Assembly: GCA_012212665.1 (NCBI GenBank)
Contig: GCA_012212665.1_4517.1
Source: a phage
Reading direction: 5' to 3' (one strand)
DNA length: 64,000 nucleotides
Position numbers and translations under genes: made by a program. Shown here piece after piece: positions 4,307 to 57,210 of this stretch (position 1 is the stretch's first letter; the number at the start of each line of letters is the position of its first letter). Under the pieces are notes generated by a model. That model saw only the letters and a program-made list of their open reading frames with translations. It had not been told where the DNA came from and did not search any database.

Positions 4307-4939
4307 TCACAGTACGTTAGTTACAAGGGTAATGATTTCTTTGGACACATTAGGGAAGTCAATGTAAGTATATTTACCACCGATTTTAATCTTAACATCA
4401 TTTTCAAGAGAAGTAAACAGCTTTGATTCAGTTTCTGACATGTTGTATGCAAAGATTCTAAGAGCGCCATCTCGTCGAATTTCAATTTGGCGAATGCCTA
4501 GAACTCGTTTAGCGAATCGAACTTCTAAGTTACTACGGTTTTCACCAATTTCTTTAACTTCAACTTTATCTTTAATATTTTCAAAAACAAAGTTCGCTAG
4601 TTCATGCATTTCAGGAGTAACTCCACGTGCTTTTCTGGTGTTACGTTTCTGGAGAAGTTCTGGAGCATTTTCTTGAGCAAATAGGTCTGCAGCTTTTTGG
4701 ATAATATCCATTGCTTCGCCGGTTGCCACAAGTCCATCACCGGATTTTTCGACTAAACCTTTCTTAATCAATACACCAATGTTAGAGTTAACAACTGACG
4801 CATTGTATTCCGCTTCCAGAGCTTCACGGACATTGGCAGCAGTGGTGAAGTTGTTCTTAATGATATAAACCATTATTGCAGCAGTTTTTTCATTCAGAGC
4901 GTTTTCAGAAGCTTTGATGATGTAAGTAACTTTAGACAT
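4307..4939 (-). CDS. motA: Middle-transcription activator MotA
   Basis: 210 aa, N-terminus MSKVTYIIKAS..NEKTA and internal NSNIGVLIKKGLVEKSGDGL match T4 MotA; synteny with gene 52. Confidence 0.9.
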   Translation of the reverse strand: MSKVTYIIKASENALNEKTAAIMVYIIKNNFTTAANVREALEAEYNASVVNSNIGVLIKKGLVEKSGDGLVATGEAMDIIQKAADLFAQENAPELLQKRNTRKARGVTPEMHELANFVFENIKDKVEVKEIGENRSNLEVRFAKRVLGIRQIEIRRDGALRIFAYNMSETESKLFTSLENDVKIKIGGKYTYIDFPNVSKEIITLVTNVL

Positions 4940-4978
4940 TTTATTTCTCCAATTTGGTTGTTTTGTTTTGATAGGTCT

Positions 4979-5007
4979 ATAATATCATGTTTGAAGCACA
5001 TGTAAAC
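4979..5007 (-). promoter_or_regulatory. Early promoter (GTTTAC -35 / TATTAT -10) for motA
   Basis: Minus strand reads GTTTAC-17 nt-TATTAT about 40 nt upstream of the motA start. Confidence 0.55.
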
Positions 5008-5013
5008 TGTTTT

Positions 5014-5052
5014 GTGAGAAAAAAAAATGCACAAAAGGGAGCTTCGGCTCCC
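5014..5052 (-). terminator. Intrinsic terminator downstream of gene 52
   Basis: Minus-strand hairpin GGGAGC-CGAA-GCUCCC followed by UUUUGUGCAUUUUUUUUU. Confidence 0.65.
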
Positions 5053-5128
5053 TAATCATGTTTGTCTAACCAATACAGCCAAATCACTAGTGCAGCTATT
5101 GCACCGAGAAATCCTAAGGCTAGGGCAC

Positions 5129-6454
5129 TCAAAGTGCCTCCAAGTCTTTAGTGTACTCTGTCACAACATCAGTAGACTTCCAATACTCATTTTCTTCTTT
5201 CTTAGCTTTAGCTTCTTCTGCTAGTTTACGTGCTTCGTCAGAAGTGATATGGAAGATGTTAAGACCTACCAATTTATCGATATGTTCTTTATACATTTCG
5301 ATTTGTGCTAGCTCTTCAGTCAAAGCTTTACGAGTCTTGCCTTGAATCACAATTTCGCCACTGATAACTTTTTTGATGAAGTGTGCCTTAGCAAAAGCCA
5401 GTTTAAATGCTTTTTCAGATTCAATGATTTTGTTATCAATACGTTTCTGAACGTAAGTCTTACGGACTTCAACAAAATCTTTGATTAAGTCCACTACGTT
5501 ATCGTAGACCGTTAATTTACCCTTTTCATTAATCACTGTGATGTTTTGTGAACGACGTTCGATGAGACTAAAATCTTTCATGGTTTTTTCATGACGTAGC
5601 TCTTCATCATCAGGAAGCGAGTACTCTTTACGGAACTTCACCTTAAACCCAAAACCGTGTTCACCACAATCATCTTCCCATGAGATTAGACCTTTGTCTT
5701 CCAACGGGTCAAGAACCTTACTCACATACGTTTCACGGTCGAATTTATATGGGATTTCAGTTATCTGCATTTGAGTGCGAGATGTGAACTTATATGTTCC
5801 GTGAATCTCATAACGCCCATCAACTTCATGCACTTCACCGCGGAATTCCGGGAATTCAACTTTTGGTTTAGTGACATTTTTACCTTGAAGAGCTTGTAAT
5901 ACAGCCTTTTTGACCGATTTAAAACTATGAGGCAGAATATTTGTTGCGTAACCGGTTGCAATACCAGAGACACCGTTCAAAAGAACTGTCGGAATAATAG
6001 GAAGATAGAATTTTGGTGGAACGTGTTCTTTATCTTCATGAGCTGGAGCATATTCGGTATCTTTATAGACATTATAGAAATTTTTGCTTACACGAGCAAA
6101 AATATAACGAGATGCTGCAGCTTTTTGGACTGTTCGAGAACCAAAGTTGCCTTGACCATCTAATAGTGGATAGTTGTTATTCCATGTGTTAGCCATCAAT
6201 GCACCTGCATCTTGTGCAGAAGATTCACCATGGTGATAACCTAAATCTGCAACACCGCCTGCAATTGACGCAAGTTTATGAAATTTTTCTTTATTACCAC
6301 GAGCCAAATCTAATGCACGATGAACCACAAAACGTTGAACCGGCTTAAATCCATCAATCATGTTTGGGATTGCACGGTTTTCAACGGTGTACATAGCATA
6401 TGCTAAGGCTTCGTTATCAATAATACTTTTTAGATTACGAGAATTCAATTGCAT
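5129..6454 (-). CDS. 52: DNA topoisomerase II medium subunit gp52 (GyrA-like)
   Basis: 441 aa; topoisomerase II DNA-cleavage core similarity (GFKPVQRF.., LLDGQGNFGS, active-site region); T4 synteny motA-52. Confidence 0.9.
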   Translation of the reverse strand: MQLNSRNLKSIIDNEALAYAMYTVENRAIPNMIDGFKPVQRFVVHRALDLARGNKEKFHKLASIAGGVADLGYHHGESSAQDAGALMANTWNNNYPLLDGQGNFGSRTVQKAAASRYIFARVSKNFYNVYKDTEYAPAHEDKEHVPPKFYLPIIPTVLLNGVSGIATGYATNILPHSFKSVKKAVLQALQGKNVTKPKVEFPEFRGEVHEVDGRYEIHGTYKFTSRTQMQITEIPYKFDRETYVSKVLDPLEDKGLISWEDDCGEHGFGFKVKFRKEYSLPDDEELRHEKTMKDFSLIERRSQNITVINEKGKLTVYDNVVDLIKDFVEVRKTYVQKRIDNKIIESEKAFKLAFAKAHFIKKVISGEIVIQGKTRKALTEELAQIEMYKEHIDKLVGLNIFHITSDEARKLAEEAKAKKEENEYWKSTDVVTEYTKDLEAL

Positions 6455-27689: not shown

Positions 27690-28349
27690 TTAACCTCGAT
27701 TCATAAATGCATTAAATATTTGGTCATCAACAGAAATTTCTAATTCGGCTTCAATTGCTTCAGCCTTTTCTTCAGGTGGTAATTCGTATCCACACACTAC
27801 AATTTTTTCATCGATATCAAAATATACAGAAGCAATACGATTAATGTTACTTTCAGTTAAGTCTAAATCAACATCAACATCTTTTTGACCTACACTTAAA
27901 GGATAACTAATACGGGTTATTTTATTATCTTTAACAAAGAGTCCACCAACATACTCTGTACTACGTTTGAAGTTTACACGTTTCCGAATTGAAAGATATG
28001 ATACATCTTTACCGTGAGCTCGGCTCATAGGACATAATGAATAGCTAGAATAAGAGATGTCAAATCCTACACCTTCAATATGAGCCAACGTGTCATGAGT
28101 AAACCAATTATAATCATATGCCAAATCCATTAAATTATAATATGTGAAAGGCACTGGATTAACATCATATGTTGTACCTTTAAAATCAGCCCAGGCAACG
28201 ATTTCGTTATCTTTAACAATTACAAAAATTACACCAATATGGTATCCGTTATTATTTTCATTCGGCGTTATATTATAACATTGTGCATTAGGAAATTTAC
28301 CATATTTAAATGGTGCGTTTTTGTGCATGTAATAAATCATATTATTCAC
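27690..28349 (-). CDS. Hypothetical protein
   Basis: ORF of 219 aa. Confidence 0.5.
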   Translation of the reverse strand: MNNMIYYMHKNAPFKYGKFPNAQCYNITPNENNNGYHIGVIFVIVKDNEIVAWADFKGTTYDVNPVPFTYYNLMDLAYDYNWFTHDTLAHIEGVGFDISYSSYSLCPMSRAHGKDVSYLSIRKRVNFKRSTEYVGGLFVKDNKITRISYPLSVGQKDVDVDLDLTESNINRIASVYFDIDEKIVVCGYELPPEEKAEAIEAELEISVDDQIFNAFMNRG

Positions 28350-33526: not shown

Positions 33527-34075
33527 TTAACGAGCCCATTTGATGATTTCTGTAATCAAACCATTACGTTCGCTTGCATTAAATCCTATAACTTTGTTAG
33601 CACCATCATGATTAAGTAATTGATATGTTTGGATTTTGTTATGAATTGCAAACTCTTCAAAATGTGAAATGACTGTATTAAAACCGAATGAAGACAAAGT
33701 AATAAGGTCGTCTTCAAAACTTTCAGTCATTTCATTACGTGTTAAAATAATTGTGAACACATCATGGTTTTGGCAAAGACGAACATAGTCCTGTTCATAA
33801 ACGTCAAGAACCGAGTCCGCATCTTGTCGAATACGTCCATAAACCCAGTTACTAATATATCCACGGTCTAACAGATAAATCTTAGTAGGGTCTAAATAAT
33901 TCAACATCGTTTCGAAACAGCCAACTTCATTTCGAGACTTAACATCGAAACGTCCATCAACTGTTCGTTTAGGGAAATCAATCTTTACATATCTTTCACT
34001 AATTTCCATTATGTCATTAATGAAAGTTGTTTTACCAGCATTATCTGGGCCGTCTACTAAAATAATTTTAGCCAT
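33527..34075 (-). CDS. P-loop nucleotide/nucleoside kinase-like protein (thymidylate kinase / dNK fold)
   Basis: 182 aa; Walker A GPDNAGKTT and LLDRGYIS (DRY/DRH-like) motif; part of the uvsX-43 insertion. Confidence 0.5.
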   Translation of the reverse strand: MAKIILVDGPDNAGKTTFINDIMEISERYVKIDFPKRTVDGRFDVKSRNEVGCFETMLNYLDPTKIYLLDRGYISNWVYGRIRQDADSVLDVYEQDYVRLCQNHDVFTIILTRNEMTESFEDDLITLSSFGFNTVISHFEEFAIHNKIQTYQLLNHDGANKVIGFNASERNGLITEIIKWAR

Positions 34076-34076
34076 T

Positions 34077-34976
34077 TTATTCCTCGATTACGACATCTTC
34101 GTATTTAGGTATATTATACGGTGAAGAAATTAAAGCATTAAAGTAGATGAACTCACCAAGACCTGGATGGAATACTTCTTCAGGATTTTCGAAATATTGA
34201 ATCTTCGGACGTCCTTTAAGAATTTGATAGTACTCAGTTTTAGTTGGATTAAAAATTCGAATCAGCGCTTCTTCAGGATACTTATTTCTGTCGAAGCTAT
34301 TATTTGGATCGGTTATATAAAGCGGTTGACCTAATTGAATTGCACATTCAACCACTTGTTCAAAACGATAACATGGGTCACTAATTCGAAATGGATGAAA
34401 AATACCATCTAGATGAATAGGAGCCAAATCACCTACAAGACGCTGCATGATGGAAGGACGTATAACTTTCTGAGTTACGATAATCTTATTACCATCTGCA
34501 CCTGCGTTAACCAGCACTTCCTTTTGACGTTCATTCAACACAGTAGTTTGAAGTGAACGATTAACTGACAACATATCGGTTTTTAAGAATTCATCAATAT
34601 AAAAGCGTGGTTTATTAGGGTCTGCAGTGATATTGAAATTGAATTCTACGTCAAAAGCGCCATCATATCCAGTGATATCTGTGATTAGAAAATCACAATC
34701 ATAATAAGCAATTAATGAATCAACAACAAATTCATTTTCAGACCAGAAATATTTACGAGTGTTATACGCGTTATCTTTATACCATAATGGAACAAACTTA
34801 AATTCTGGGAAAAGACGTTCACATTCTTTAATATCAGATGCATTACGTGGATATGTAATCACATCACCCGGATTAGCACGGTGCAAATGAAGTTGGAAGT
34901 TGCCATCCTTAAGGATAGCATACTGTCCAGTTTCATAAGACCGCATACTCAAGATTGGTACGCGGAAAATAGCCAT
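34077..34976 (-). CDS. Hypothetical protein at the T4 beta-gt locus; candidate modification transferase
   Basis: 299 aa, no recognisable motif; occupies the position of beta-glucosyltransferase between uvsX and gene 42. Confidence 0.4.
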   Translation of the reverse strand: MAIFRVPILSMRSYETGQYAILKDGNFQLHLHRANPGDVITYPRNASDIKECERLFPEFKFVPLWYKDNAYNTRKYFWSENEFVVDSLIAYYDCDFLITDITGYDGAFDVEFNFNITADPNKPRFYIDEFLKTDMLSVNRSLQTTVLNERQKEVLVNAGADGNKIIVTQKVIRPSIMQRLVGDLAPIHLDGIFHPFRISDPCYRFEQVVECAIQLGQPLYITDPNNSFDRNKYPEEALIRIFNPTKTEYYQILKGRPKIQYFENPEEVFHPGLGEFIYFNALISSPYNIPKYEDVVIEE

Positions 34977-35692
34977 TAGTCAAGGAATCCTTTAACATAA
35001 TCAAAATCACGTTCAAACACATGGGCACTTACCATGGTATGAGTATAATCACCAACTTCTACACCGCATTCGTTAGCGATATAATGAAGTAATTTTCCTT
35101 GGAGATAAAAATCCAACTGCATAACAACAGCACAGTTCTGAGAACGCATATGGCAGTGGGTATAAAGCTTACCATCACGAATATAATAAGTCACTGAGTC
35201 AGTACATGGATATTCAAGTGTTTCGTCCGAATCAAGCAAAGCCTGATCAGAACTTTCTAGAATTTGGAACACAACTCTTCGAGAGTTAGGTTTCTCTTTA
35301 AGTTCTTTTAGAAGAGCTGGTAATTGGGCCGCAATGCGAGGACCATAGAAAGTGTTGAAGTTCGCCGGCAAAGCGTCTGATTTAGGTTTAGAAATAAATT
35401 TAGCGACATTAGGATATGCCTTAAACGCTTCTTCTGCATCAGTACCACCAGAAATCATAAACTTCCAGAAGTCTTCGGCATATTCATAAGAGATGCGGTT
35501 AATACGTGGGTCGGTCATTTTGAATGATGATGGATTGTCAACAACTACTGTCATGGACCCAATTTCATTACAACGTCCAATACGAGAATCAGTTACGAAT
35601 TCAGGGTTTTCTAAAATTTCACGATTGACTGCTTTAAATGCGGTTTGAAAATCTGCGGCTTTGATATATTTCATTGTGTTATGTTTTCCCAT
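34976..35692 (-). CDS. 42: dCMP hydroxymethylase gp42 (thymidylate synthase family)
   Basis: 238 aa; active-site region YPCTDSVTYYIRDGKL...HMRSQN aligns with T4 gp42 (FMCTNTVQYLIRD...NMRSND). Confidence 0.85.
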   Translation of the reverse strand: MGKHNTMKYIKAADFQTAFKAVNREILENPEFVTDSRIGRCNEIGSMTVVVDNPSSFKMTDPRINRISYEYAEDFWKFMISGGTDAEEAFKAYPNVAKFISKPKSDALPANFNTFYGPRIAAQLPALLKELKEKPNSRRVVFQILESSDQALLDSDETLEYPCTDSVTYYIRDGKLYTHCHMRSQNCAVVMQLDFYLQGKLLHYIANECGVEVGDYTHTMVSAHVFERDFDYVKGFLD

Positions 35693-35734: not shown

Positions 35735-35974
35735 TTATTTGAATTTCTTGGCAATGTTGATATAACGTAAAGCTTCAGAATCTATACTTCCAAGAACACT
35801 ATGAAGGAATGCATCAGTGTAGTATTCCAATTGAACAGGTTCTTTAATCACTTTAGCCGCTTTGGTTTCAAACAGGCCCATAAGGGCCTTTTTAAGAATT
35901 TGTTCGTTAGTGTTCAGTTTCATAGTCAAAATCTCTTCGTTAAGTTTATAATTAAAACTTTTTCTAGAAATCAT
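35735..35974 (-). CDS. Hypothetical protein (imm position, but not hydrophobic)
   Basis: ORF of 79 aa between gene 42 and the Cys-rich protein. Confidence 0.4.
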   Translation of the reverse strand: MISRKSFNYKLNEEILTMKLNTNEQILKKALMGLFETKAAKVIKEPVQLEYYTDAFLHSVLGSIDSEALRYINIAKKFK

Positions 35975-37131
35975 TCCGGGTACCTCAAAGCGTCATCAGA
36001 GTTAGTTATATCAATAATAGATATGGAGTTTTCTGCTAACCCGTTTTTAGATAATTGACGTTTATAATACCTTTCACAATATGTACACGTTGACCCACAG
36101 ATTTCATTAGCACAATCAAAATCTGGGTGTCTGAACCACCTTTTTTCTAAAAAGCCATCTAACAAAGAGGTTTCAATATTTACTGTATGTGAAAACTCAG
36201 TCTCATTTTCAAGAGTGAAAATAGTCTCTAAAGGCTTCCACAGTTCTAACAAATTACCTTCAAACTTTTCAGAAGCGTATGCTTCAAGAACTTTCAAAAT
36301 GTAGTCTGTGCTACCTGTACGTCCTGAAACTTTGAATTGAGTGATACCAATATCATTATAAAGTTTCAAATCTTGAGGACGAACAAAACGAGTTCTCAAC
36401 CAGTTAAATGGGTCTGTATCACGAGCTTTAATACAGTGCTGCATAGGATATCCATTTAAGGATTTAGCATCGTCAGCGGTAACATCAGTACTATGGAAAA
36501 TATAGCAAGAGTCACGATAGCTACAATGTGTTGTATACCCTTTACCAGCATTAGAACAGAACTCATTTACAAGAACTTCAAATATTATATTGTTCTTATT
36601 GCAAAACTCTGCTGCACGCTTCAGGAAAGAAACTGAACGGTTCTTATGAATTCCGCAGCAGACCTTTTTGATGTTATATTGGTCATGTAAGTATTTGATT
36701 TGAGTTACAGCATCGACATGTAGAATTGTTGAAACTTCAATCTCAATATCTTTATTGACTTCACGAACAATTTCCATAACAACAGGGTTAGCGATAGTAA
36801 TACGCCATACGCCTATTGACCAAAGATACTGAACATAATCCTGAATAGCTTTCTTCTTCCACTCAACTAGTTCTCTTTTTGAACCAGGATTTATCGTGTT
36901 GAGTGTATAGTTAAAGCAAATACCTAATTCGTTACAACGTTTAACGTAGTCTTCTAACATCTTTTTGTCAACGTCAGGAAGCCTAAAATCAGGTCTGGCT
37001 GCTACAAAAGCCATTTCTCTTGTAGAGCCATATACTTCGTTTATCAAGCTATTAGGATAGGTTTTATTGAGCTCTACGATTTTATCAAGAAGAGCTAAAT
37101 CAAAATTCGTTCCGATTTTAAAAGTATTCAT
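35971..37131 (-). CDS. Cys-rich putative metalloenzyme (possible peptidase U32-like / Fe-S protein)
   Basis: 386 aa; C-terminal CANEICGSTCTYC cluster (C-x4-C-x3-C-x2-C) and EVLVNEFCSNAGKG block loosely resembling the U32 family signature; assignment tentative. Confidence 0.45.
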   Translation of the reverse strand: MNTFKIGTNFDLALLDKIVELNKTYPNSLINEVYGSTREMAFVAARPDFRLPDVDKKMLEDYVKRCNELGICFNYTLNTINPGSKRELVEWKKKAIQDYVQYLWSIGVWRITIANPVVMEIVREVNKDIEIEVSTILHVDAVTQIKYLHDQYNIKKVCCGIHKNRSVSFLKRAAEFCNKNNIIFEVLVNEFCSNAGKGYTTHCSYRDSCYIFHSTDVTADDAKSLNGYPMQHCIKARDTDPFNWLRTRFVRPQDLKLYNDIGITQFKVSGRTGSTDYILKVLEAYASEKFEGNLLELWKPLETIFTLENETEFSHTVNIETSLLDGFLEKRWFRHPDFDCANEICGSTCTYCERYYKRQLSKNGLAENSISIIDITNSDDALRYPE

Positions 37132-37191
37132 TTTTTTTGCATCTCGCGTTAATTGATGCGATGGTTTTTTTTGCAGGTCTTACTTAAATTA

Positions 37192-37593
37192 TTATAGATT
37201 CGGTTTATACGATTTAAATGTTTCGAATTCGCCTTTATTCATAAGAGCTTTGAATTCGTCAGGACGCATAGCTTTGTCGTCGATAATCCAATCATATACT
37301 GGTTTATGTGTTAGCAAATTATGGTACTTCAAGCCAATGTTTGCCAAGTTCTGAATCAGACTTGGGAGAATGTCAATTGCTATACGACCAGGACCTACTG
37401 ACTTCATACCGCGAGCAGTGTAAAGCGTTATGGTATGCCCTGCATCATACAGGGCATTAATGGCGGTCACCATTTCGACGTCTGGTTTGAAGTTCACATA
37501 ATCACGATTGTTATTCCACTCTGTTATACAATCATCGACATCAAAACAAAGATTAAGCATGTTTTCTACACGGTGCATTAGATTCGTTCCCAT
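37192..37593 (-). CDS. HAD-superfamily phosphatase (KdsC-like small sugar-phosphate phosphatase)
   Basis: 133 aa; motif I FDVDDCIT (DxDx[TV]) near the N-terminus. Confidence 0.55.
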   Translation of the reverse strand: MGTNLMHRVENMLNLCFDVDDCITEWNNNRDYVNFKPDVEMVTAINALYDAGHTITLYTARGMKSVGPGRIAIDILPSLIQNLANIGLKYHNLLTHKPVYDWIIDDKAMRPDEFKALMNKGEFETFKSYKPNL

Positions 37594-39266
37594 TGATGAG
37601 TGATATCGCCACCGATTGGACGATAGGAAACACCAGTTTCTTTATCAGTTAGTACCCATTTACCAGGATTTTTTGTAATCAGAGTAGCCGTTACAGGTTC
37701 TGCTACGTCATAACTAATAGAGCCGTCTTGAAGTACACGGCCCATGTTACGTAATTGCTTAGTCAGAAGTTCCATACCTTTATAATATGCGGCAACCGCT
37801 TTAAGTGGATTATTCTTGAAATAACCACCTAATGCAATCCAGATAATTGCTACTGCCAAATGATGATACTCGTTAAACGAACTCATCTTTCCATATTTGT
37901 AAACTAATGGATTGATGTTAATAGTCACATTACAAGTTGTTTCATCAATAGTAAACTGACCCCAGGTCGGATTAGCATTGAATTCATCATAACCTGAAAC
38001 AGCATAAAGCACTTTAGCTTCATCATACAATTTTGGCCCGTAAATCTTGGTTTCACCAAAATATCCACGAGGGTCGATAAACTTGACTTCGCCGTTATCG
38101 GTAATCATAGTATTACTGAAGTTCGGGTCACCATGAATAACAGAGTACTGTCCCTGAGAACGGTTATGATAACGAATAAGATGTTCTAAAGCTTGTTTCA
38201 ACATTGGCTTCAGACGTCCAATCTTAGTGTAGTTCACATGTGTGATTTTACCAAATGAATCAATCAATGGCTGAATGCTTTCACAACGATCAATAACTTT
38301 CGTATAGAACTCTTTAGTGAAATCACGGCGAACAGTTTCAGGACTTACAAAATAAGTGTCCGTGCTGAATTTCAGTGCATCTAAAATTGCATCAACAATT
38401 TGTGGACGAGCAAGACTTGATTTGGATTTAATATATTCAAATGCCGGCTTACCTTTAATGCGTTCCATAATAAAGTGGCCGCCAGGATGATAACTTACAA
38501 TCCGTGGAACTGAATCTGATTTAACTTTCTTATACCAATTGACTTCATCTTTTTGAAGTGCAACGCCCTGTTCTGTTAAAGCAATCTTTGTTACAGTTTC
38601 TTCGCCAATTTCAACTGCATTAAAACTACGATTCAGTTCACGAACTTCATGAGCCTTTTCAAGTTTAGGCATATCACCTAAATCAATTAGATTCATAAGC
38701 TCTGATTTATTGAATGCACTGCCGTAAAGGAATTCTACGAAATCACGACCTTTGCAGTATTCGTGAATTTCCTCATCAGTAGAACCCATGTAGAATTCCC
38801 AGTCTTTGAACTGATAAATTCCTACAACATTACCACCTGTTGAACCTACGTTAGTGATATTTTCACCATCGAAATTATATCGACATTCATCACCCTTAAC
38901 ATAGATTGCGTTAACATTCCAAGACCATGAACCAAAGTCAGGAATAATATCACACCAGTTAACAATTACGTTATGGCCATCTAAATCTTTGTATAATTTA
39001 GCAAGAGCATAAGCAGAACCATACGCTTCATCAACTGTACGAATAGTCACATTGAACCCTTCTTGCTCGCAATAAGCTCGAACAGTTTCAGCAAATTTTG
39101 AATGAACTACTACAATAATTTCATCTGCGCCAAGGTCAGAATAAATTGTATACAAATTGCTCAGAATAGTGTCTTGTTTATAGTTAACAAGCACCTTAGG
39201 AATATGGTGCGTTATTGGATACAAACGAGTTGCCAGTCCAGCACCAAGAATAACAGCTTTTTTCAT
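37578..39266 (-). CDS. Bifunctional sugar-1-phosphate nucleotidyltransferase / anomeric sugar kinase (APH/choline-kinase fold)
   Basis: 562 aa; N-terminus KAVILGAGLATRLYPIT (G-x-G-T-R-L nucleotidyltransferase); C-terminus VIHGDPNFSN...FIDPRGYFG (APH/ChoK catalytic motifs). Confidence 0.7.
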   Translation of the reverse strand: MKKAVILGAGLATRLYPITHHIPKVLVNYKQDTILSNLYTIYSDLGADEIIVVVHSKFAETVRAYCEQEGFNVTIRTVDEAYGSAYALAKLYKDLDGHNVIVNWCDIIPDFGSWSWNVNAIYVKGDECRYNFDGENITNVGSTGGNVVGIYQFKDWEFYMGSTDEEIHEYCKGRDFVEFLYGSAFNKSELMNLIDLGDMPKLEKAHEVRELNRSFNAVEIGEETVTKIALTEQGVALQKDEVNWYKKVKSDSVPRIVSYHPGGHFIMERIKGKPAFEYIKSKSSLARPQIVDAILDALKFSTDTYFVSPETVRRDFTKEFYTKVIDRCESIQPLIDSFGKITHVNYTKIGRLKPMLKQALEHLIRYHNRSQGQYSVIHGDPNFSNTMITDNGEVKFIDPRGYFGETKIYGPKLYDEAKVLYAVSGYDEFNANPTWGQFTIDETTCNVTININPLVYKYGKMSSFNEYHHLAVAIIWIALGGYFKNNPLKAVAAYYKGMELLTKQLRNMGRVLQDGSISYDVAEPVTATLITKNPGKWVLTDKETGVSYRPIGGDITHQWERI

Positions 39267-39307: not shown

Positions 39308-39451
39308 CTAGTTAAAGCATTCATACTTTGCTTGTAGTCCAATCATAATCCATCCGATTATAAGAGTCGGAATCATTACTGGAGCCGTTAAGCTCCAGTA
39401 GATAGTCATGACAAGCATCAATAGTAAAAGTCCTATTGTTATTGCTTTCAT
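39308..39451 (-). CDS. Small hydrophobic peptide (47 aa)
   Basis: Unannotated ORF MKAITIGLLLLMLVMTIYWSL...; its ATG overlaps the TGA of the SIS gene (ATGA). Confidence 0.3.
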   Translation of the reverse strand: MKAITIGLLLLMLVMTIYWSLTAPVMIPTLIIGWIMIGLQAKYECFN

Positions 39452-40083
39452 TGTTCGCCTCGTAACATGGCACCTAGTGCACCACCAGGGTGGAACTTAA
39501 GGAAGTCATTAGAGGTAAATCCACGTTCAGACGAAAGGTTGATAGCAAACGTATCGATAAGCGCTAACAACAATGTAGTGGACATGGTCGGAGCCAGAGA
39601 ATTCTCATCAACCTCTACCGCGATGCCTGTACAGAACGTATAATCAAAAAGAGCTTCGTATTCTTGCGGAATGTCAGGGTTACAATGTAACAGAATCTGT
39701 TTAACCTGAGGACGAATCATACGAAGATGTTTAGCAACACCTATCATTTCTTCAGTCTTACCAGAACGACTGATGTGAACTAATACATCATTAGGCGCAA
39801 TGAATCCTGCATCACCGTGAGAATAATGCCCGGTGTTCAAATACATGCTAGGAATACCTAGTGAAGCAAAAGTCTCGGAAGCTTTAGTTGCGATATTAGC
39901 GTTCTTACCAACACCTGTAATAATTACTCGGCTTTCATAATTACTCAGTCCAGGGCGACGAAGAGTTTCAAGAATAGCATTATATCGGGCAGAGTTTTGA
40001 CTAATTACTTTAGCCATAGTGGCAAGAGATGAAGCTTGTTTTACGATTGCGTCAATAGCGATAGTGATTGGTGTAGTTTTCAT
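39448..40083 (-). CDS. SIS-domain sugar-phosphate isomerase, arabinose-5-phosphate isomerase (KdsD/GutQ)-like
   Basis: 211 aa; motifs ITGVGKNANIA, HGDAG, SRSGKTEE, APTMSTT, FHPGGALG align with the KdsD SIS domain; no CBS domains. Confidence 0.75.
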   Translation of the reverse strand: MKTTPITIAIDAIVKQASSLATMAKVISQNSARYNAILETLRRPGLSNYESRVIITGVGKNANIATKASETFASLGIPSMYLNTGHYSHGDAGFIAPNDVLVHISRSGKTEEMIGVAKHLRMIRPQVKQILLHCNPDIPQEYEALFDYTFCTGIAVEVDENSLAPTMSTTLLLALIDTFAINLSSERGFTSNDFLKFHPGGALGAMLRGEQ

Positions 40084-54455: not shown

Positions 54456-54926
54456 TTAATCATGTTTCCACACCCCATCGGTATTTGACCAAAGTCGCTG
54501 ATTATCTGATCCTCGCCACAACTTTTTGGTCGGAAGATTTTTCTCATACTTCCCATCAATAATAACATCAACATATTTAAGCATTTCTAGTTGTTTAATA
54601 TCTTCAAACTTATATCCTGTCCACAACCAAATGCTTTTATTGGGATAAAGATTTTTAATAGTTTGTACCACAGAGTGAATCACGTCTCTGTTATCAGGAT
54701 AAAGAGGGTCACCTCCAGTTATAGTTAATCCTTCTATATAATCATTATTCAAACATTCAATTAATTGTTCTAGTGTTTCACCAGTGAATGGAATACCATT
54801 TCTAGCATTCCATGTTGATTTATTATAACACCCTTCGCATTTATGCAAACAACCTGTAACGAAAAGAACGACCCTGCAACCAGGGCCATTCACAAAATCA
54901 CAAGGATAAAATCTATCATAATTCAT
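54456..54926 (-). CDS. nrdG: Anaerobic ribonucleotide reductase activating protein NrdG (radical SAM)
   Basis: 156 aa; N-terminal Cys cluster (CRVVLFVTGCLHKCEGC) typical of NrdG; T4 synteny. Confidence 0.9.
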   Translation of the reverse strand: MNYDRFYPCDFVNGPGCRVVLFVTGCLHKCEGCYNKSTWNARNGIPFTGETLEQLIECLNNDYIEGLTITGGDPLYPDNRDVIHSVVQTIKNLYPNKSIWLWTGYKFEDIKQLEMLKYVDVIIDGKYEKNLPTKKLWRGSDNQRLWSNTDGVWKHD

Positions 54927-56740
54927 TGGTGTTTAACCCTATGCATTATTTCTTTATTTTTACCGAGATTAAATCCGCGTTCGTTCGGATTTCCCAGATA
55001 GCCGCATGTTCTTCTTATTGTGTTCATCTTTTTAGGATCAGTTTCTCCACAAACTGAACAAACAAATCCATTTTCAGTAGGAGTCATTTCATGGGTACTT
55101 CCGCATGTAAAACATTTATCTACTGGCATATTAACACCAAAATAATCTAAATGCTGTGCAGCATAATCCCATACAGCCTCAAGTCCCTTTAAGTTATTTT
55201 TCATATCAGGAAGTTCAACATAAGAAATGTGACCACCCGTCGCAATGAAATGATATGGCGCTTCACGAGAAATTTTTTCAAACGGAGTGATATTTTCTTC
55301 TACTGAAACGTGGAAACTGTTAGTGTACCATCCTTTATCAGTAACATCCTTTACACTTCCATATTTTTCAGTATCGAGTTTACAGAAACGATAACACAAG
55401 TTTTCAGCAGGAGTAGAATACAAGCTAAAAGCAAATCCGGTTCTTTCTGTCCACTGTTTAAGACGGGCATTCATTTTAGTTAAAATTTCTTGTCCGATAT
55501 CACGACCAACAAGAATATTCAATTCGTGAATACCAATGTATCCTAAGGACACTGAACTTCTGCCGTTTTTAAATAACTCAATTATATCGTCATCGGGTTT
55601 AAGACGAACCCCGAATGCACCTTCTTGGTAAAGAATAGGAGCAACAGTCGCTTTAACTCCTTTTAAGGAACTAATTCTACACATCAATGCTTCAAAACAC
55701 AAATCCATTCGTTCATTGAACAATTCAACAAATTTCTGTTCGTTAAATTGTGTTCCAACATAAGAATCTAACGCAATTCGAGGAAGATTCAGCGTTACAA
55801 CACCAAGATTATTACGTCCATCAAGAATTTCATTACCAGTCGAATCTTTCCATACGCTCAAGAAACTACGGCAACCCATCGGAGAAACAGGAATAGATGA
55901 ACCAGTGATAGCTTTATTATTCTTAACTGAAATAATATCAGGATACATCCTTTTACTTGCACACTCTAGAGCAAGCTGCTTAATATCATAGTTCGGGTCG
56001 TCTTTATAAAGATTAACACCTTCTTCAACGAACATGACAAGCTTAGGAAAAATAGGAGTTATCCCATCACGGCCAAGACCTTTAATACGATTTTTCAGAA
56101 TTGCTTTCTGAATCATTCGCTCGGCCCAGTCAGTTCCCGTACCAAATGTAATCGTTACAAAAGGCGTTTGCCCGTTTGAACTAAAGAGAGTATTTACTTC
56201 ATATTCATAAGCTTGGAATGCATCATATACATCTTTTTCTGTTTTAGATTGAGCATAATTCAGTGCATCAGCGATTTGCCATTTTTCCGCGTCCTCGATA
56301 TGTTTTGCATAGGTGCGTTTAACATAAGGAGAAAGTACTTTATCTACATTCGCAAAAGTCGTTCCGCCGTATTGATGAGAAGCAACTTGCGCAGTAATTT
56401 GTGCCATAATTGCAGTAGCAACACCGATTGATTTAGGTGTTTCAATCTGCGCATTACCAAGCTTAAACCCGTTCTCAAGCATTCCTTTTAAATCTACTAA
56501 ACAGCAATTAGTAAACGGAAGAGCAGGAGAATAATCAATATCGTGGAAATGGATAATTCCGCTTTCATGCGCTTTCATAATAAAAGACGGGACCATATTT
56601 TTGGCAATGTGTTTAGACACAATACCAGCCATAAGGTCCCGTTGAGTTGGAAAAACACGAGAATCTTTATTAGCATTCTCGTTCAAAAGATCTTTATTAG
56701 TTTTACGAATTAATCCTTCAATTTCTTTTTCAATTTTCAT
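54923..56740 (-). CDS. nrdD: Anaerobic ribonucleoside-triphosphate reductase NrdD (intronless)
   Basis: 605 aa continuous ORF; C-terminal zinc ribbon (CFTCGSTH...CSVCG) and glycyl-radical motif RRTCGYLG. Confidence 0.92.
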   Translation of the reverse strand: MKIEKEIEGLIRKTNKDLLNENANKDSRVFPTQRDLMAGIVSKHIAKNMVPSFIMKAHESGIIHFHDIDYSPALPFTNCCLVDLKGMLENGFKLGNAQIETPKSIGVATAIMAQITAQVASHQYGGTTFANVDKVLSPYVKRTYAKHIEDAEKWQIADALNYAQSKTEKDVYDAFQAYEYEVNTLFSSNGQTPFVTITFGTGTDWAERMIQKAILKNRIKGLGRDGITPIFPKLVMFVEEGVNLYKDDPNYDIKQLALECASKRMYPDIISVKNNKAITGSSIPVSPMGCRSFLSVWKDSTGNEILDGRNNLGVVTLNLPRIALDSYVGTQFNEQKFVELFNERMDLCFEALMCRISSLKGVKATVAPILYQEGAFGVRLKPDDDIIELFKNGRSSVSLGYIGIHELNILVGRDIGQEILTKMNARLKQWTERTGFAFSLYSTPAENLCYRFCKLDTEKYGSVKDVTDKGWYTNSFHVSVEENITPFEKISREAPYHFIATGGHISYVELPDMKNNLKGLEAVWDYAAQHLDYFGVNMPVDKCFTCGSTHEMTPTENGFVCSVCGETDPKKMNTIRRTCGYLGNPNERGFNLGKNKEIMHRVKHQ

Positions 56741-57210
56741 TTTAAACTCTTTCTAAGCTGCTTTTTGAATGAAGCTATTAATTGTGTTTTAGTATCAGAT
56801 TCATTATATTCAAATCCTCTTTGAAGCATCTCGGCCATCATTTCATCTTTACCTAGTCTTGAGAACTCTTTAGTTTTGTCTGGAACAAAATTAGGATGGA
56901 TATTATTATCAGAATAATCTTGTTTCAAATAATCAAGAAGAGATTCAAGCCATTCTAGGTAGTCAACGTTTTGACCTTTCAAACCGGAACGGTTGAACTT
57001 ATGCTTCATTTGACCTTCTGCTGCGTTGCACAGATTACAGAGTAATCCACGAACTCTACCGGCTTTTGGCCCATTTAATTCGTGGTCATGGTCAAGATGG
57101 TTACCTTGAACATCAGGGTCTAATTCACGGTGGCAAATAGGACACTTACCGTTCTGTGCATCATAAAATTTTTGTTTTTCTTCTTTATATTTTGCGCCTG
57201 ATAATAACAT
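56737..57210 (-). CDS. 49: Recombination endonuclease VII gp49 (Holliday junction resolvase)
   Basis: 157 aa; near-identical to T4 endo VII (KYKEEKQKFYDAQNGKC.IC.REL.PDVQ.NHLDHDHELNGPKAG.VRGLLCNLCNAAEGQMKHKFNRSGLKGQ). Confidence 0.92.
   Translation of the reverse strand: MLLSGAKYKEEKQKFYDAQNGKCPICHRELDPDVQGNHLDHDHELNGPKAGRVRGLLCNLCNAAEGQMKHKFNRSGLKGQNVDYLEWLESLLDYLKQDYSDNNIHPNFVPDKTKEFSRLGKDEMMAEMLQRGFEYNESDTKTQLIASFKKQLRKSLK

Follow-up and report, generated by a model that had tools for sequence, protein, structure and literature searches.

The window analysed here, a stretch of 64,000 nt of phage DNA, contains a DNA-modification module with genes for a SIS isomerase, a nucleotidyltransferase-kinase, a HAD phosphatase, a U32-family protein, the product of orf79, a ThyA homolog, a glycosyltransferase (GT) and a kinase (Table 1). 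The U32 gene is located between DNA polymerase and uvsX, within the syntenic cluster for arabinosyl-5-hydroxycytosine (ara-5-hydroxy-C), which corresponds to gp45-gp55 of RB69 and gp76-83 of DLP3. Both the gene set and the synteny agree with the original prediction, which had placed this gene inside a DNA-modification module. The coordinates and the length of 386 aa given there were also correct, but the coding strand is the minus strand, on which the ORF runs from ATG to stop; the plus-strand frame is riddled with stops. The presence of nrdD and nrdG in the window means that the phage is equipped for replication without O2. A scan for promoters and terminators revealed no enrichment over shuffles (19 found vs 26.6 expected).

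Table 1. Features of the modification module, of the U32 protein and of the anaerobic reductase genes in the window.
Feature	Position (nt)	Strand	Remarks
Tmk-like nucleotide kinase, RB69 gp45 family	33527..34075	(-)	Family accompanies U32 in distant phages
Glycosyltransferase (GT), RB69 gp46:47 family, 'arabinosyltransferase 1'	34077..34976	(-)	Family accompanies U32 in distant phages
ThyA-homolog 5-hydroxy-dCMP synthase	34976..35692	(-)	Pfam Thymidylat_synt; homolog of RB69 gp48 with 99.6% identity; hydroxylase dependent on flavin and O2
orf79 (RB69ORF049c, phrog_8601)	35735..35974	(-)	Start overlaps the U32 stop (ATGA)
U32-family protein, 386 aa	35971..37131	(-)	RB69 gp50 / NP_861740 homolog; phrog_5757; proposed O2-independent, prephenate-dependent pyrimidine C5-hydroxylase
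C-terminal C340-x4-C345-x3-C349-x2-C352	36076..36114	(-)	May form a second Fe-S cluster or a Zn site; motif taken from the sequence itself
U32 core domain, aa 94-286, part of TIM-barrel	36274..36852	(-)	
Central Cys motif, aa 190-233	36433..36564	(-)	Candidate [4Fe-4S] ligands; all invariant
HAD-type phosphatase, sugar-activation arm	37192..37593	(-)	RB69 gp51 / HY126 AfhF homolog
Bifunctional nucleotidyltransferase/kinase, single intact 562-aa ORF	37578..39266	(-)	Pfam NTP_transferase and weak kinase-family matches; RB69 gp52:53 / AfhE homolog
SIS-domain arabinose-5-phosphate isomerase	39448..40083	(-)	Pfam SIS; RB69 gp55 homolog
nrdG, radical-SAM activase	54456..54926	(-)	Fer4_12 166 bits, Radical_SAM 32.5 bits
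nrdD, class III anaerobic ribonucleotide reductase	54923..56740	(-)	Pfam NRDD 573 bits, Gly_radical

The U32 protein of the window is 99.2% identical to its RB69 counterpart. A loose likeness of its middle region, EVLVNEFCSNAGKG..., to the U32 signature had been noticed by eye, and the search with Pfam PF01136 (Peptidase_U32) turned it into a statistically supported match (42.2 bits at a gathering cutoff of 22.4, E 7.3e-11, aa 94-286); U32 homologs in other phages score 45-46 bits. Searches of the PDB by sequence, both with the single sequence and with a profile, returned only chance matches, so a fold comparison was required; by this comparison the protein has the same TIM-barrel fold as Mk0906 (5d88), a U32 protein of solved structure. 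The domain scan found PF01136 alone in the phage protein. The accessory domains DUF3656 of RlhA and Peptidase_U32_C of TrhP, which the same scan detected in the E. coli proteins, are absent from it, and its score with the NCBIfam UbiU equivalog NF047963 (18.5 bits) is below the cutoff of 440. A search of a plasmid collection retrieved only distant cellular U32 proteins with less than 28% identity. The U32 gene is under the strongest purifying selection in the module, with a mean dN of 0.124 vs 0.223 for the DNA polymerase (Nei-Gojobori, synonymous sites being saturated).

GenBank and PHROGs annotate such proteins as peptidases or collagenases. It is extremely improbable that the protein is a genuine protease, an idea drawn from database names alone: the name stems from the historical label of the U32 family, the characterised members of which are all tied to hydroxylation and not to proteolysis (PMC10990095). 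Proteolysis would also be an ill fit with the invariant Fe-S-type cysteines, the linkage to chorismate mutase (CM) and the nucleotide-metabolism context described below.

An alignment of 37 homologs, with identity down to 47% and a mean column identity of 55%, contains ten invariant cysteines (full-length numbering, i.e., alignment position plus one). Six of them, C158, C177, C192, C203, C209 and C233, precede the remaining four, C340, C345, C349 and C352, which constitute the motif CANEICGSTCTYC. A Cys cluster of this spacing had been predicted to end the protein; the cluster does exist, but it belongs to the C-terminal region and 34 residues follow it. The motif is not a chance arrangement, because all four cysteines are invariant across the 37 homologs, and the region was modelled at a pLDDT of about 88-95. 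The central motif has the layout E190-F191-C192 ... C203-x5-C209-Y-I-x-H ... G-Y-P-M-Q-H-C233. The known U32 hydroxylases bind a [4Fe-4S] cluster through four cysteines, arranged as C-x6-C ... C-x3-C or in the variant of UbiU. Comparison by hhalign pairs C203 and C209 with C169 and C176 of RlhA, the canonical first pair of Fe-S cysteines. The third and fourth canonical cysteines (C-x3-C) are missing from the phage protein, and therefore C192 and the invariant C233, which lies in a sequence GYPMQHC233 resembling GYPTLC232 of UbiU, would have to stand in as candidate ligands. The invariant cysteines suggest the metal or Fe-S character that had been predicted, and the protein probably binds an Fe-S cluster.

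The spacing of the last three cysteines, C345-x3-C349-x2-C352, with an aromatic residue before the last one (CGSTCTYC), fits the canonical radical-SAM motif, and membership in this superfamily had been put forward as one possibility. However, the Pfam model Radical_SAM (PF04055) gave no match to the protein up to E 0.1, although it does recognise the NrdG encoded in the window, the positive control. The motif is situated C-terminally to a complete U32 barrel instead of following the first strand, as it would in a radical-SAM barrel, and the fourth invariant cysteine, C340, argues for a fully ligated site. There is hardly any likelihood left that these cysteines serve a radical-SAM enzyme, and this assignment was rejected on the negative profile result and the positive NrdG control.

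The grouping with the pyrimidine C5-hydroxylases RlhA and TrhP, suggested initially, is supported, RlhA giving the best match among the E. coli paralogs (hhalign E 3.9e-5 over 202 columns). RlhA (YdcP) is the U32 protein on which the formation of 5-hydroxycytidine at C2501 of E. coli 23S rRNA depends. The two proteins have in common the U32 barrel, the signature motif and the C...C-Y-I-x-H segment, and would share their chemistry, the proposed hydroxylation of the cytosine ring at C5, with the dependence on prephenate and Fe-S reported for the family (PMC10990095). They differ in length (386 aa vs 653 aa in RlhA), in the absence from the phage protein of DUF3656, of the long C-terminal region and of the third and fourth canonical cysteines (C192-x3-C196 in RlhA), and in the proposed substrate, a deoxynucleotide for DNA instead of rRNA. 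The similarity to TrhP, which possesses Peptidase_U32_C and acts on tRNA uridine, is weak (E 2e-3, probability 13%).

UbiU and UbiV are O2-independent ubiquinone hydroxylases using prephenate as the oxygen donor, and the chorismate-mutase domain of PheA restores their function in vivo (PMC10990095). Like the phage protein, they consist of the U32 domain only, and they act on a small molecule; the fourth ligand of UbiU is C232 of the GYPTLC segment mentioned above. The similarity is nevertheless very weak (hhalign probability 5% for UbiU and none for UbiV), the phage protein is a single polypeptide with ten conserved cysteines, whereas UbiU and UbiV form a heterodimer with one cluster each, and it has no UbiT-like partner.

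The neighbouring gene, predicted to encode a dCMP hydroxymethylase, encodes instead a gp48-type 5-hydroxy-dCMP synthase, a flavin- and O2-dependent enzyme that takes its oxygen atom from O2 (Lee et al. 2026, PMC13326640). In the DNA of RB69 all cytosine is replaced by arabinosyl-5-hydroxy-C, gp48 is the only known hydroxylase, gp48 with a dNMP kinase is sufficient in E. coli, and gp50, the U32 protein, is labelled a 'sugar or heterocycle reductase' in Table 1 of that work and is otherwise unexplained (Lee et al. 2026, PMC13326640). The gp48-type enzymes (RB69 gp48, DLP3 gp80 and the ThyA homolog of HY126) would make the same product in the same pathway as proposed for the U32 protein; they are encoded two genes from U32 and have the same GT and kinase partners. 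In contrast, they have the fold of the thymidylate-synthase superfamily, unrelated to U32, use a flavin cofactor and O2, and occur in phages that infect strict aerobes and have no U32 gene. The Acinetobacter phage DLP3, which is devoid of U32, forms the same base and attaches more arabinose to it, giving tri-arabinosyl-5-hydroxy-C. The idea that the U32 enzyme adds a modification step not present in T4 thus needs revision: since DLP3 produces the base of RB69 without it, a second, O2-independent route is more likely than an extra chemical step.

The reductase label of gp50 could also point to an accessory role, either as a flavin reductase serving gp48 or as an enzyme altering the arabinose. 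An Fe-S protein may transfer electrons, and the TIM-barrel fold is common to many sugar-phosphate enzymes. Such a role is nonetheless quite improbable, as the UDP-arabinofuranose route is complete without U32 and both the sufficiency of gp48 with the kinase and the tri-arabinosylated base of DLP3 speak against it. Besides, many phages possess U32 without a ThyA-type partner in the flanks examined, and an accessory role leaves the recurrent linkage to CM and DAHP synthase unaccounted for.

The product of chorismate mutase is prephenate. An AroQ-type CM gene lies just downstream of U32 in 14 of the 17 T4-like loci carrying U32; in nine of these loci CM and the U32 stop share 4 nt, and in five CM is found 167-369 nt away, beyond a small ORF. 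A tblastn search with the T4-like CM gave matches in 54 of 50,697 phage records, all of them T4-like phages of Enterobacterales or Shewanella, and most of the CM matches listed have the ThyA homolog and/or a U32 'peptidase' in the annotation under the match. Altogether, CM genes adjoin U32 in 25 of 55 loci belonging to at least five contexts, and apart from the T4-like phages a mutase is found beside U32 in four or more phage contexts unrelated to each other. These include an independent CM immediately downstream of U32 in a group of jumbo phages, another next to U32 in locus L051, and DAHP-synthase-CM fusions next to U32 in loci L038 and L054. The mutases of these non-T4-like phages score 46.7-71.8 bits with Pfam CM_2 (cutoff 27). 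The catalytic residues R11, R28, K39, S84 and Q88 of CM are conserved. As prephenate is the oxygen donor linked to U32 hydroxylases (PMC10990095), the linkage to CM is indirect support for the proposed use of prephenate by the phage U32 protein.

No CM was found by tblastn anywhere in the window, the lineage of which lacks this gene. In relatives, orf79 lies between U32 and CM. The product of orf79 was considered as a divergent CM and rejected: it has no similarity to CM, and four related phages (L015, L022, L024 and L028) carry both orf79 and a separate CM.

We found the U32 gene in 222 phage records, and in every case the host belongs to Enterobacterales or Shewanella. The ThyA homolog is present in 378, including 57 Acinetobacter and 22 Rhizobium phages, and no phage of these two hosts is among the 222 U32 records. 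A complete Acinetobacter phage genome encodes the ThyA homolog and lacks U32, CM, NrdD and NrdG. The U32 gene is absent from Acinetobacter phage AB-Navy97 and from the E. coli Dhakavirus CLB_P2 and is unlisted for the DLP3 cluster. This pattern suggests that U32 is restricted to phages of facultative or strict anaerobes, a correlation that draws on a small number of independent phage lineages. Some 40 records of Escherichia phages (e.g., Dhakavirus CLB_P2, L003) have the ThyA-type pathway without U32 in a facultatively anaerobic host, so phages of this sort do not depend on U32. Rather than a core gene of the ara-5-hydroxy-C cluster, U32 is an accessory cassette, which may or may not include orf79 and CM.

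The gp46:47-family GT and the gp45-family kinase are found with the ThyA homolog only (L002 and L003), with both the ThyA homolog and U32 (the T4-like phages of Enterobacterales) and with U32 only, the last combination occurring in many uncultured phages. Loci of the last kind have a contiguous kinase-GT-U32 arrangement in six cases, U32-CM-GT in seven and CM-kinase-GT in L051. The flanks (up to 6 kb on each side) of the 37 non-T4-like U32 loci contained no ThyA-like ORF. Other U32 relatives adjoin genes for dCMP deaminase, thymidylate kinase, dNK, NT5C and deoxyribosyltransferase.

On balance, the window U32 protein is probably an O2-independent, prephenate-dependent deoxycytidylate C5-hydroxylase of the Fe-S type, as judged from its sequence and gene neighbourhood. 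The enzyme would hydroxylate C5 of deoxycytidylate without O2, prephenate serving as the oxygen donor, and would do under anoxia what the 5-hydroxy-dCMP synthase encoded close by does with flavin and O2. The analysis establishes the family and fold of the protein, the conservation of its cysteines, the gene linkage, the distribution among phages and the purifying selection; its Fe-S binding, use of prephenate, hydroxylase activity, substrate and independence of oxygen are inferred by comparison. The direct hydroxylase activity of the founding U32 members has not been reconstituted in vitro (PMC10990095). The 5-hydroxy-dCMP formed would be phosphorylated and incorporated at replication, and the glycosyltransferases encoded nearby would then add arabinose to it on the DNA. 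Prephenate would come from the CM encoded downstream of U32 in most related phages; the Mosigvirus lineage of the window has lost CM and would rely on PheA and TyrA of the host. The phage appears to need such an enzyme, as it carries the anaerobic NrdDG, yet gp48, the only known hydroxylase, draws on O2.

By analogy, the pairing of U32 with gp48 would mirror those of TrhP with TrhO and of UbiUV with UbiHIF, and that of NrdDG with NrdAB in the phage itself. TrhP and TrhO are the paradigm of a prephenate-dependent U32 route and an O2-dependent route to the same tRNA nucleoside, ho5U34 (PMC10990095). UbiU and UbiV are an anaerobic backup to the flavin- and O2-dependent UbiI/H/F, which is the logic proposed for gp50 versus gp48. 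NrdDG and NrdAB of T4 set a precedent for separate anoxic and oxic phage enzymes for one step of nucleotide metabolism, and the Acinetobacter phage tested has neither NrdD nor NrdG, just as it has no U32; with another reaction and other enzyme families involved, this analogy is one of logic only.

The substrate is most likely the mononucleotide dCMP and less likely cytosine already present in DNA. The hydroxylation of cytosine in phage DNA after replication would be in line with the action of RlhA and TrhP, the closest characterised relatives by sequence, on polynucleotides, and the invariant C-terminal Cys4 site could be a nucleic-acid-binding zinc module. We consider modification at the polymer level unlikely: the accessory domains of RlhA and TrhP are absent from the phage protein, and relatives are surrounded by enzymes that act on mononucleotides (dCMP deaminase, Tmk-like kinases, dNK, NT5C). 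The dCTPase of T4-like phages destroys dCTP (established T4 biology; Lee et al. 2026, PMC13326640), and therefore a cytosine-containing DNA substrate should not accumulate.

RNA itself might be the target, either tRNA (ho5U34) or rRNA (ho5C2501) of the host or the phage, the enzyme tuning translation and having nothing to do with DNA modification. For the nearest paralogs, RlhA and TrhP, no biological role other than RNA hydroxylation has been demonstrated, and T4-like phages encode tRNAs. This role is very improbable, given that all 17 U32 loci examined in cultured T4-like phages also carry the 5-hydroxy-C gene cluster and that U32 of distant phages is contiguous with DNA-type glycosyltransferases and nucleotide kinases. 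The domains accessory to the RNA enzymes are missing, and the host already has its own RlhA and TrhP.

The assignment of the phage protein as a deoxycytidylate hydroxylase can be extended more tentatively. It is quite possible, if somewhat doubtful, that the protein is the first cultured representative of a viral U32 clade of prephenate-consuming deoxypyrimidine C5-hydroxylases. In gut jumbo phages and other phages whose hosts are strict anaerobes, such an enzyme would be the sole hydroxylase for a widespread, not yet described family of O-glycosylated 5-hydroxypyrimidine DNAs. If this is true, one prephenate would be spent per modified base, or ~6x10^4 per genome of RB69 size (167,560 bp, ~37% G+C), and because of this cost the phage CMs and DAHP-synthase fusions would rewire the shikimate pathway of the host as a supply. 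Phage aromatic-pathway genes of the CM and DAHP synthase kind would thereby gain their first metabolic role. The protein would also be the first U32 enzyme acting on DNA precursors, extending prephenate-dependent U32 chemistry beyond RNA and quinones, and, being small and soluble, could serve as a model for a family in which reconstitution of the activity has never been achieved. In the literature we found no earlier functional assignment of a phage U32 protein or of a phage CM in this pathway, although an earlier mention is possible.

Phages of the RB69 type are common coliphages of the gut and candidates for therapy, and their DNA is protected by arabinosylated 5-hydroxycytosine. The gut is largely devoid of O2, and an O2-independent isozyme, if confirmed, would explain how the modification, and hence the resistance to restriction and CRISPR, is kept up in the natural habitat. 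The combination of U32, GT and Tmk-like kinase, with or without CM, would then be a genomic marker for new hypermodified DNAs in anaerobic viromes. In practical terms, the widespread misannotation of phage U32 genes as 'peptidase' is corrected.

The source of the window is a Mosigvirus, a T4-like phage in the RB69 group, and the 6.6-kb stretch around the U32 gene shares 98% identity with Escherichia phages FP43 and p000v. The U32 ORF is real, reading from ATG to stop, and its product shows 99.2% identity to RB69 gp50 (RB69p050, NP_861740), labelled 'peptidase'. As indicated by ORF and Pfam reading, the gene is part of a tightly packed array with all genes in the same direction.

Features of the window (the array from gp43 to UvsX in gene order) and of three U32 loci fetched with their flanks
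Feature	Coordinates	Strand	Remarks
DNA polymerase gp43			first member of the array
SIS isomerase	39448..40083	-	Pfam/ORF reading
nucleotidyltransferase-kinase	37578..39266	-	562 aa, one intact ORF; Pfam/ORF reading
HAD phosphatase	37192..37593	-	next to the U32 gene
hairpin	37144-37161		7-bp stem, TCGCGTTAATTGATGCGA on the + strand; in the 60-nt gap between HAD gene and U32 start
U32 gene	35971..37131	-	386 aa
orf79 (RB69ORF049c, phrog_8601)	35735..35974	-	start overlaps the U32 stop as ATGA
ThyA homolog	34976..35692	-	Pfam/ORF reading
glycosyltransferase	34077..34976	-	299 aa, one intact ORF; Pfam/ORF reading
Tmk-like kinase	33527..34075	-	Pfam/ORF reading
UvsX			last member of the array
AdfA	27690-28349	-	219 aa
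nrdG, nrdD, endonuclease VII	54456-57210	-	156, 605 and 157 aa, contiguous
L036, IS605/TnpB-type gene	4689-5948		directly upstream of U32
L038, DAHP-synthase-chorismate-mutase fusion	4411-5433		562 nt upstream of U32; DAHP_synth_1 88.7 bits, mutase 71.8 bits
L054, DAHP-synthase-chorismate-mutase fusion	4928-5956		42 nt upstream of U32; DAHP_synth_1 112.7 bits, mutase 67.3 bits

The gene product has the U32 fold and ten invariant cysteines, and the gene lies inside the 5-hydroxycytosine module. The peptidase-U32 likeness of the original prediction, judged by eye, was borne out by Pfam (PF01136, 42.2 bits, gathering score 22.4) and PHROG 5757 ('peptidase', 885 bits). The suggested relation to radical-SAM enzymes found no support, as PF04055 gave no match even at E 0.1, though the same model recognises NrdG within the window. 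The predicted cysteine cluster CANEICGSTCTYC is present at C340, C345, C349 and C352; in an alignment of 37 homologs (identity down to 47%) these residues are invariant, together with C158, C177, C192, C203, C209 and C233. The mean column identity is 55%, and the conservation of ten cysteines is therefore functional rather than due to chance.

The profile of the phage U32 family was compared by hhalign with four E. coli paralogs, and matched RlhA, the 23S rRNA 5-hydroxycytidine C2501 synthase (E 3.9e-5, probability 70%, 202 columns), TrhP (E 2e-3) and UbiU (E 7e-3), with no meaningful match to UbiV. The phage signature EFCSNAGKGYTTHCSYRDSCYIFHS is aligned opposite RlhA EFFIHGALCVAYSGQCYISHA, so C203 and C209 correspond to RlhA C169 and C176, the leading two ligands of the cluster. 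The phage family lacks the canonical C-x3-C pair and has invariant C192 and C233 in its place; C233 in 'GYPMQHC' recalls the fourth UbiU ligand in 'GYPTLC232'. Unlike RlhA and TrhP, the phage protein has neither DUF3656 nor Peptidase_U32_C, resembling UbiU and UbiV in this respect. The oxygen donor of UbiUV is prephenate, and the pathway is restored by the chorismate-mutase domain of PheA; RlhA and TrhP have also been connected to O2-independent hydroxylation and Fe-S clusters, while direct catalysis by any U32 hydroxylase is yet to be demonstrated (PMC10990095).

RB69 DNA contains 5-hydroxycytosine with one or two arabinoses, not hydroxymethylcytosine, and 5-hydroxy-dCMP is made by the ThyA homolog gp48, encoded next to the U32 gene, which binds flavin and derives the hydroxyl oxygen from 18O2 (Lee et al., NAR 2026, PMC13326640). 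According to that paper, O2 as the source of the hydroxyl was confirmed in vitro by He et al. (2026). The UDP-arabinofuranose route was assigned to gp55, gp52:53 and gp51, the glycosyltransferases were likewise assigned, and Acinetobacter phage DLP3, with tri-arabinosyl-5-hydroxycytosine, has a gene cluster without U32 (PMC13326640). In the same paper, gp50 appears in Table 1 only, as a 'sugar or heterocycle reductase' with structural match 5d88, and the Discussion names pyrimidine hydroxylation by RlhA/TrhP without connection to gp50. Lee et al. regard the gp46/47 and gp52/53 splits of the RB69 reference as sequencing artefacts, which is supported by the intact glycosyltransferase and nucleotidyltransferase-kinase ORFs of the window.

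The U32 gene is confined to phages whose hosts can live without oxygen. The protein was found in 222 phage records, every match being at least 82% identical, and among the matches listed the hosts were Escherichia, Shigella, Klebsiella, Serratia, Proteus, Yersinia, Enterobacter, Providencia, Edwardsiella, Pectobacterium and Shewanella. All eleven genera are facultative anaerobes. The ThyA-type hydroxylase was found in 378 phage records, with 57 from Acinetobacter phages and 22 from Rhizobium phages among them, and neither host occurs among the 222 U32-matching records. In the Acinetobacter locus the HAD phosphatase is directly followed by the ThyA homolog, and E. coli Dhakavirus CLB_P2, with HAD, kinase and ThyA homolog in succession, matches the Marfavirus layout except that the cassette of U32 and chorismate mutase is absent. 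Acinetobacter phage AB-Navy97, whose genome is complete, encodes the ThyA homolog, gp43 and endonuclease VII, and a search of the genome found no U32, mutase, NrdD or NrdG; both NrdD (573 bits) and NrdG are encoded in the window. In the slot beside endonuclease VII that nrdG and nrdD take in the window, AB-Navy97 has just a 93-aa 'nucleotide reductase' and one short hypothetical ORF. A weak point of the pattern is about 40 Escherichia phage records with the ThyA homolog and without U32. In GTDB, ~185,000 species genomes gave only 10 loci of this U32 clade; the bins concerned belong to Phocaeicola, Romboutsia, Gastranaerophilaceae, Erysipelotrichales, Clostridium and a few environmental lineages. 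The U32 clade is essentially virus-borne and tied to anaerobes.

When nine genes of the window were compared with 11 T4-like relatives, U32 ranked first in mean identity (85.0%) and had the smallest dN (0.124, against 0.223 for DNA polymerase, 0.165 for UvsX and 0.175 for the ThyA homolog); synonymous sites are saturated (pS 0.77). This indicates long-standing purifying selection rather than recent transfer or decay.

A tight evolutionary linkage connects the U32 gene with prephenate-forming enzymes, a DNA-type glycosyltransferase and a nucleotide kinase. In Klebsiella phage PWKp16, the U32 gene end is overlapped by 4 nt by a gene for a chorismate mutase of the AroQ type, 81 aa long (Pfam CM_2, 39.5 bits, cutoff 27). 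Used as a tblastn query, this mutase matched only 54 of the 50,697 phage records, every one from a T4-like phage infecting Enterobacterales or Shewanella, and most of the matches listed are annotated with the ThyA homolog and/or the U32 'peptidase'. Among the fetched T4-like U32 loci, 14 of 17 have the mutase just downstream of U32. An HMM search extended the linkage to unrelated contexts, with the mutase immediately downstream of U32 in phage contigs of 194-294 kb (L041, L043, L045-L048) and two Romboutsia bins (L057, L058), 2.2 kb downstream in L051, and fused to a DAHP synthase upstream of U32 in L038 and L054. The CM_2 scores of mutases from non-T4-like contexts are 46.7-71.8 bits. Altogether, 25 of 55 U32 loci, in at least five distinct genomic arrangements, have a mutase within 2.2 kb, and R11, R28, K39, S84 and Q88 of the E. 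coli PheA mutase active site are kept in 11/11 aligned phage mutases. The DAHP_synth_1 family also includes KDO8P synthase, a user of arabinose-5-phosphate, so the substrate of the N-terminal domain of the fusions deserves a check.

The small ORF following U32 in the window, orf79, was considered as a degenerate mutase, and this was rejected, since four of the 14 T4-like loci carry an orf79 homolog between U32 and a separate mutase; the mutase was simply lost in the Mosigvirus lineage of the window. Translationally coupled to U32, orf79 has no cysteines or Pfam matches, has counterparts of 43-55% identity in some Yersinia and Pectobacterium-type phages, encoded there between U32 and the mutase, and is shortened to 40 aa in HY126 (L004) and 57 aa in L015. 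The product may act as an accessory factor, or orf79 may be dispensable.

Metagenomic U32 homologs with 45-58% identity lie on phage contigs amid deoxynucleotide genes, such as thymidylate kinase, UDG, PolIII-alpha and dCMP deaminase before U32 (L005, L008) or NT5C, an NMN transporter and dNK after it (L006). In iterative searches, glycosyltransferases of the gp46:47 family and kinases of the gp45 family accompanied U32 in many of these loci: kinase, glycosyltransferase and U32 are contiguous in six (L030, L034, L035, L039, L040, L049), the order U32, mutase, glycosyltransferase occurs in seven, and the order mutase, kinase, glycosyltransferase in L051; a kinase-glycosyltransferase fusion follows U32 in L054. 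Complete sugar-activation sets (SIS, nucleotidyltransferase-kinase, HAD) occur in L036, L038 and L042, and the gene after U32 in L035 has a weak likeness, below the Pfam gathering threshold, to TET-associated and HMC glucosyltransferases. The ThyA HMM (E up to 1) found no ThyA-like ORF within the fetched flanks (up to 6 kb each side) of 37 non-T4-like loci; a canonical thymidylate synthase is present in L029. Since one glycosyltransferase and kinase pair accompanies only the ThyA-type hydroxylase, only U32 or the two together, the hydroxylase and U32 appear as non-homologous enzymes filling one step.

All functional statements on the U32 protein come from comparison. It is fairly probable that the protein is an O2-independent, prephenate-dependent C5-hydroxylase for DNA modification. 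By analogy with the proposal for UbiUV (PMC10990095), the enzyme would oxidise the cytosine ring of dCMP, and the intermediate would be quenched by a hydroxyl from prephenate, giving 5-hydroxy-dCMP and phenylpyruvate. One or two Fe-S clusters would be bound, by C192/C203/C209/C233 and C340/C345/C349/C352. For such a hydroxylase, action on dCMP is favoured over action on DNA, because kinases, deaminases and nucleotidases adjoin the gene, the architecture is compact and UbiU/V-like, and T4-like phages remove dCTP. An RB69-size genome (167,560 bp, 37.2% G+C) has, by rough estimate, ~62,000 cytosines, and therefore millions of prephenate molecules would be consumed per burst, with the burst size assumed. 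This cost would give phages a reason to carry chorismate mutases and DAHP synthase fusions, presumably unregulated.

The U32 hydroxylase family and the U32 gene, widely misannotated as a peptidase, are already known. In the literature other than He et al. (2026) and Mahler et al. (2025), no link of U32 or chorismate mutase with these phages was found. Relative to the accessible literature, the assignment of an oxygen-independent route to 5-hydroxycytosine DNA to gp50, the U32-chorismate mutase cassette and the module of U32, glycosyltransferase and kinase in uncultured phages of anaerobes appear to be new. In well over 100 GenBank phage records the U32 protein is still named peptidase, collagenase or protease and the ThyA homolog dCMP hydroxymethylase or thymidylate synthase; both namings are misleading given the 2026 data. 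In Escherichia phage OLB35 (MH992122.1), the annotation splits U32 into two 'peptidase' ORFs (269 and 108 aa; BFVD A0A3G3MCS7 and A0A3G3MCT7), reflecting either a sequencing frameshift or a true disruption in a laboratory-propagated phage.

The hairpin before the U32 start, followed by GCAAAAAAAATG on the coding (-) strand, could affect translation or transcription of the gene; promoter-like hexamers at 37218-37191 (-) are without statistical meaning. The IS605/TnpB-type gene of L036 (Cas12f1-like TNB, OrfB_IS605) is inserted within a phage DNA-modification cluster. The L006/L007 contig, with Dockerin and GH43 genes, bears besides U32, NT5C, the NMN transporter and dNK a radical-SAM/SPASM protein, a second faint U32 homolog and a nucleoside deoxyribosyltransferase-like gene, and may be a separate nucleotide-modification island. 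The window also contains a counter-defence gene, encoding anti-DarT factor A (Pfam AdfA, 395 bits).
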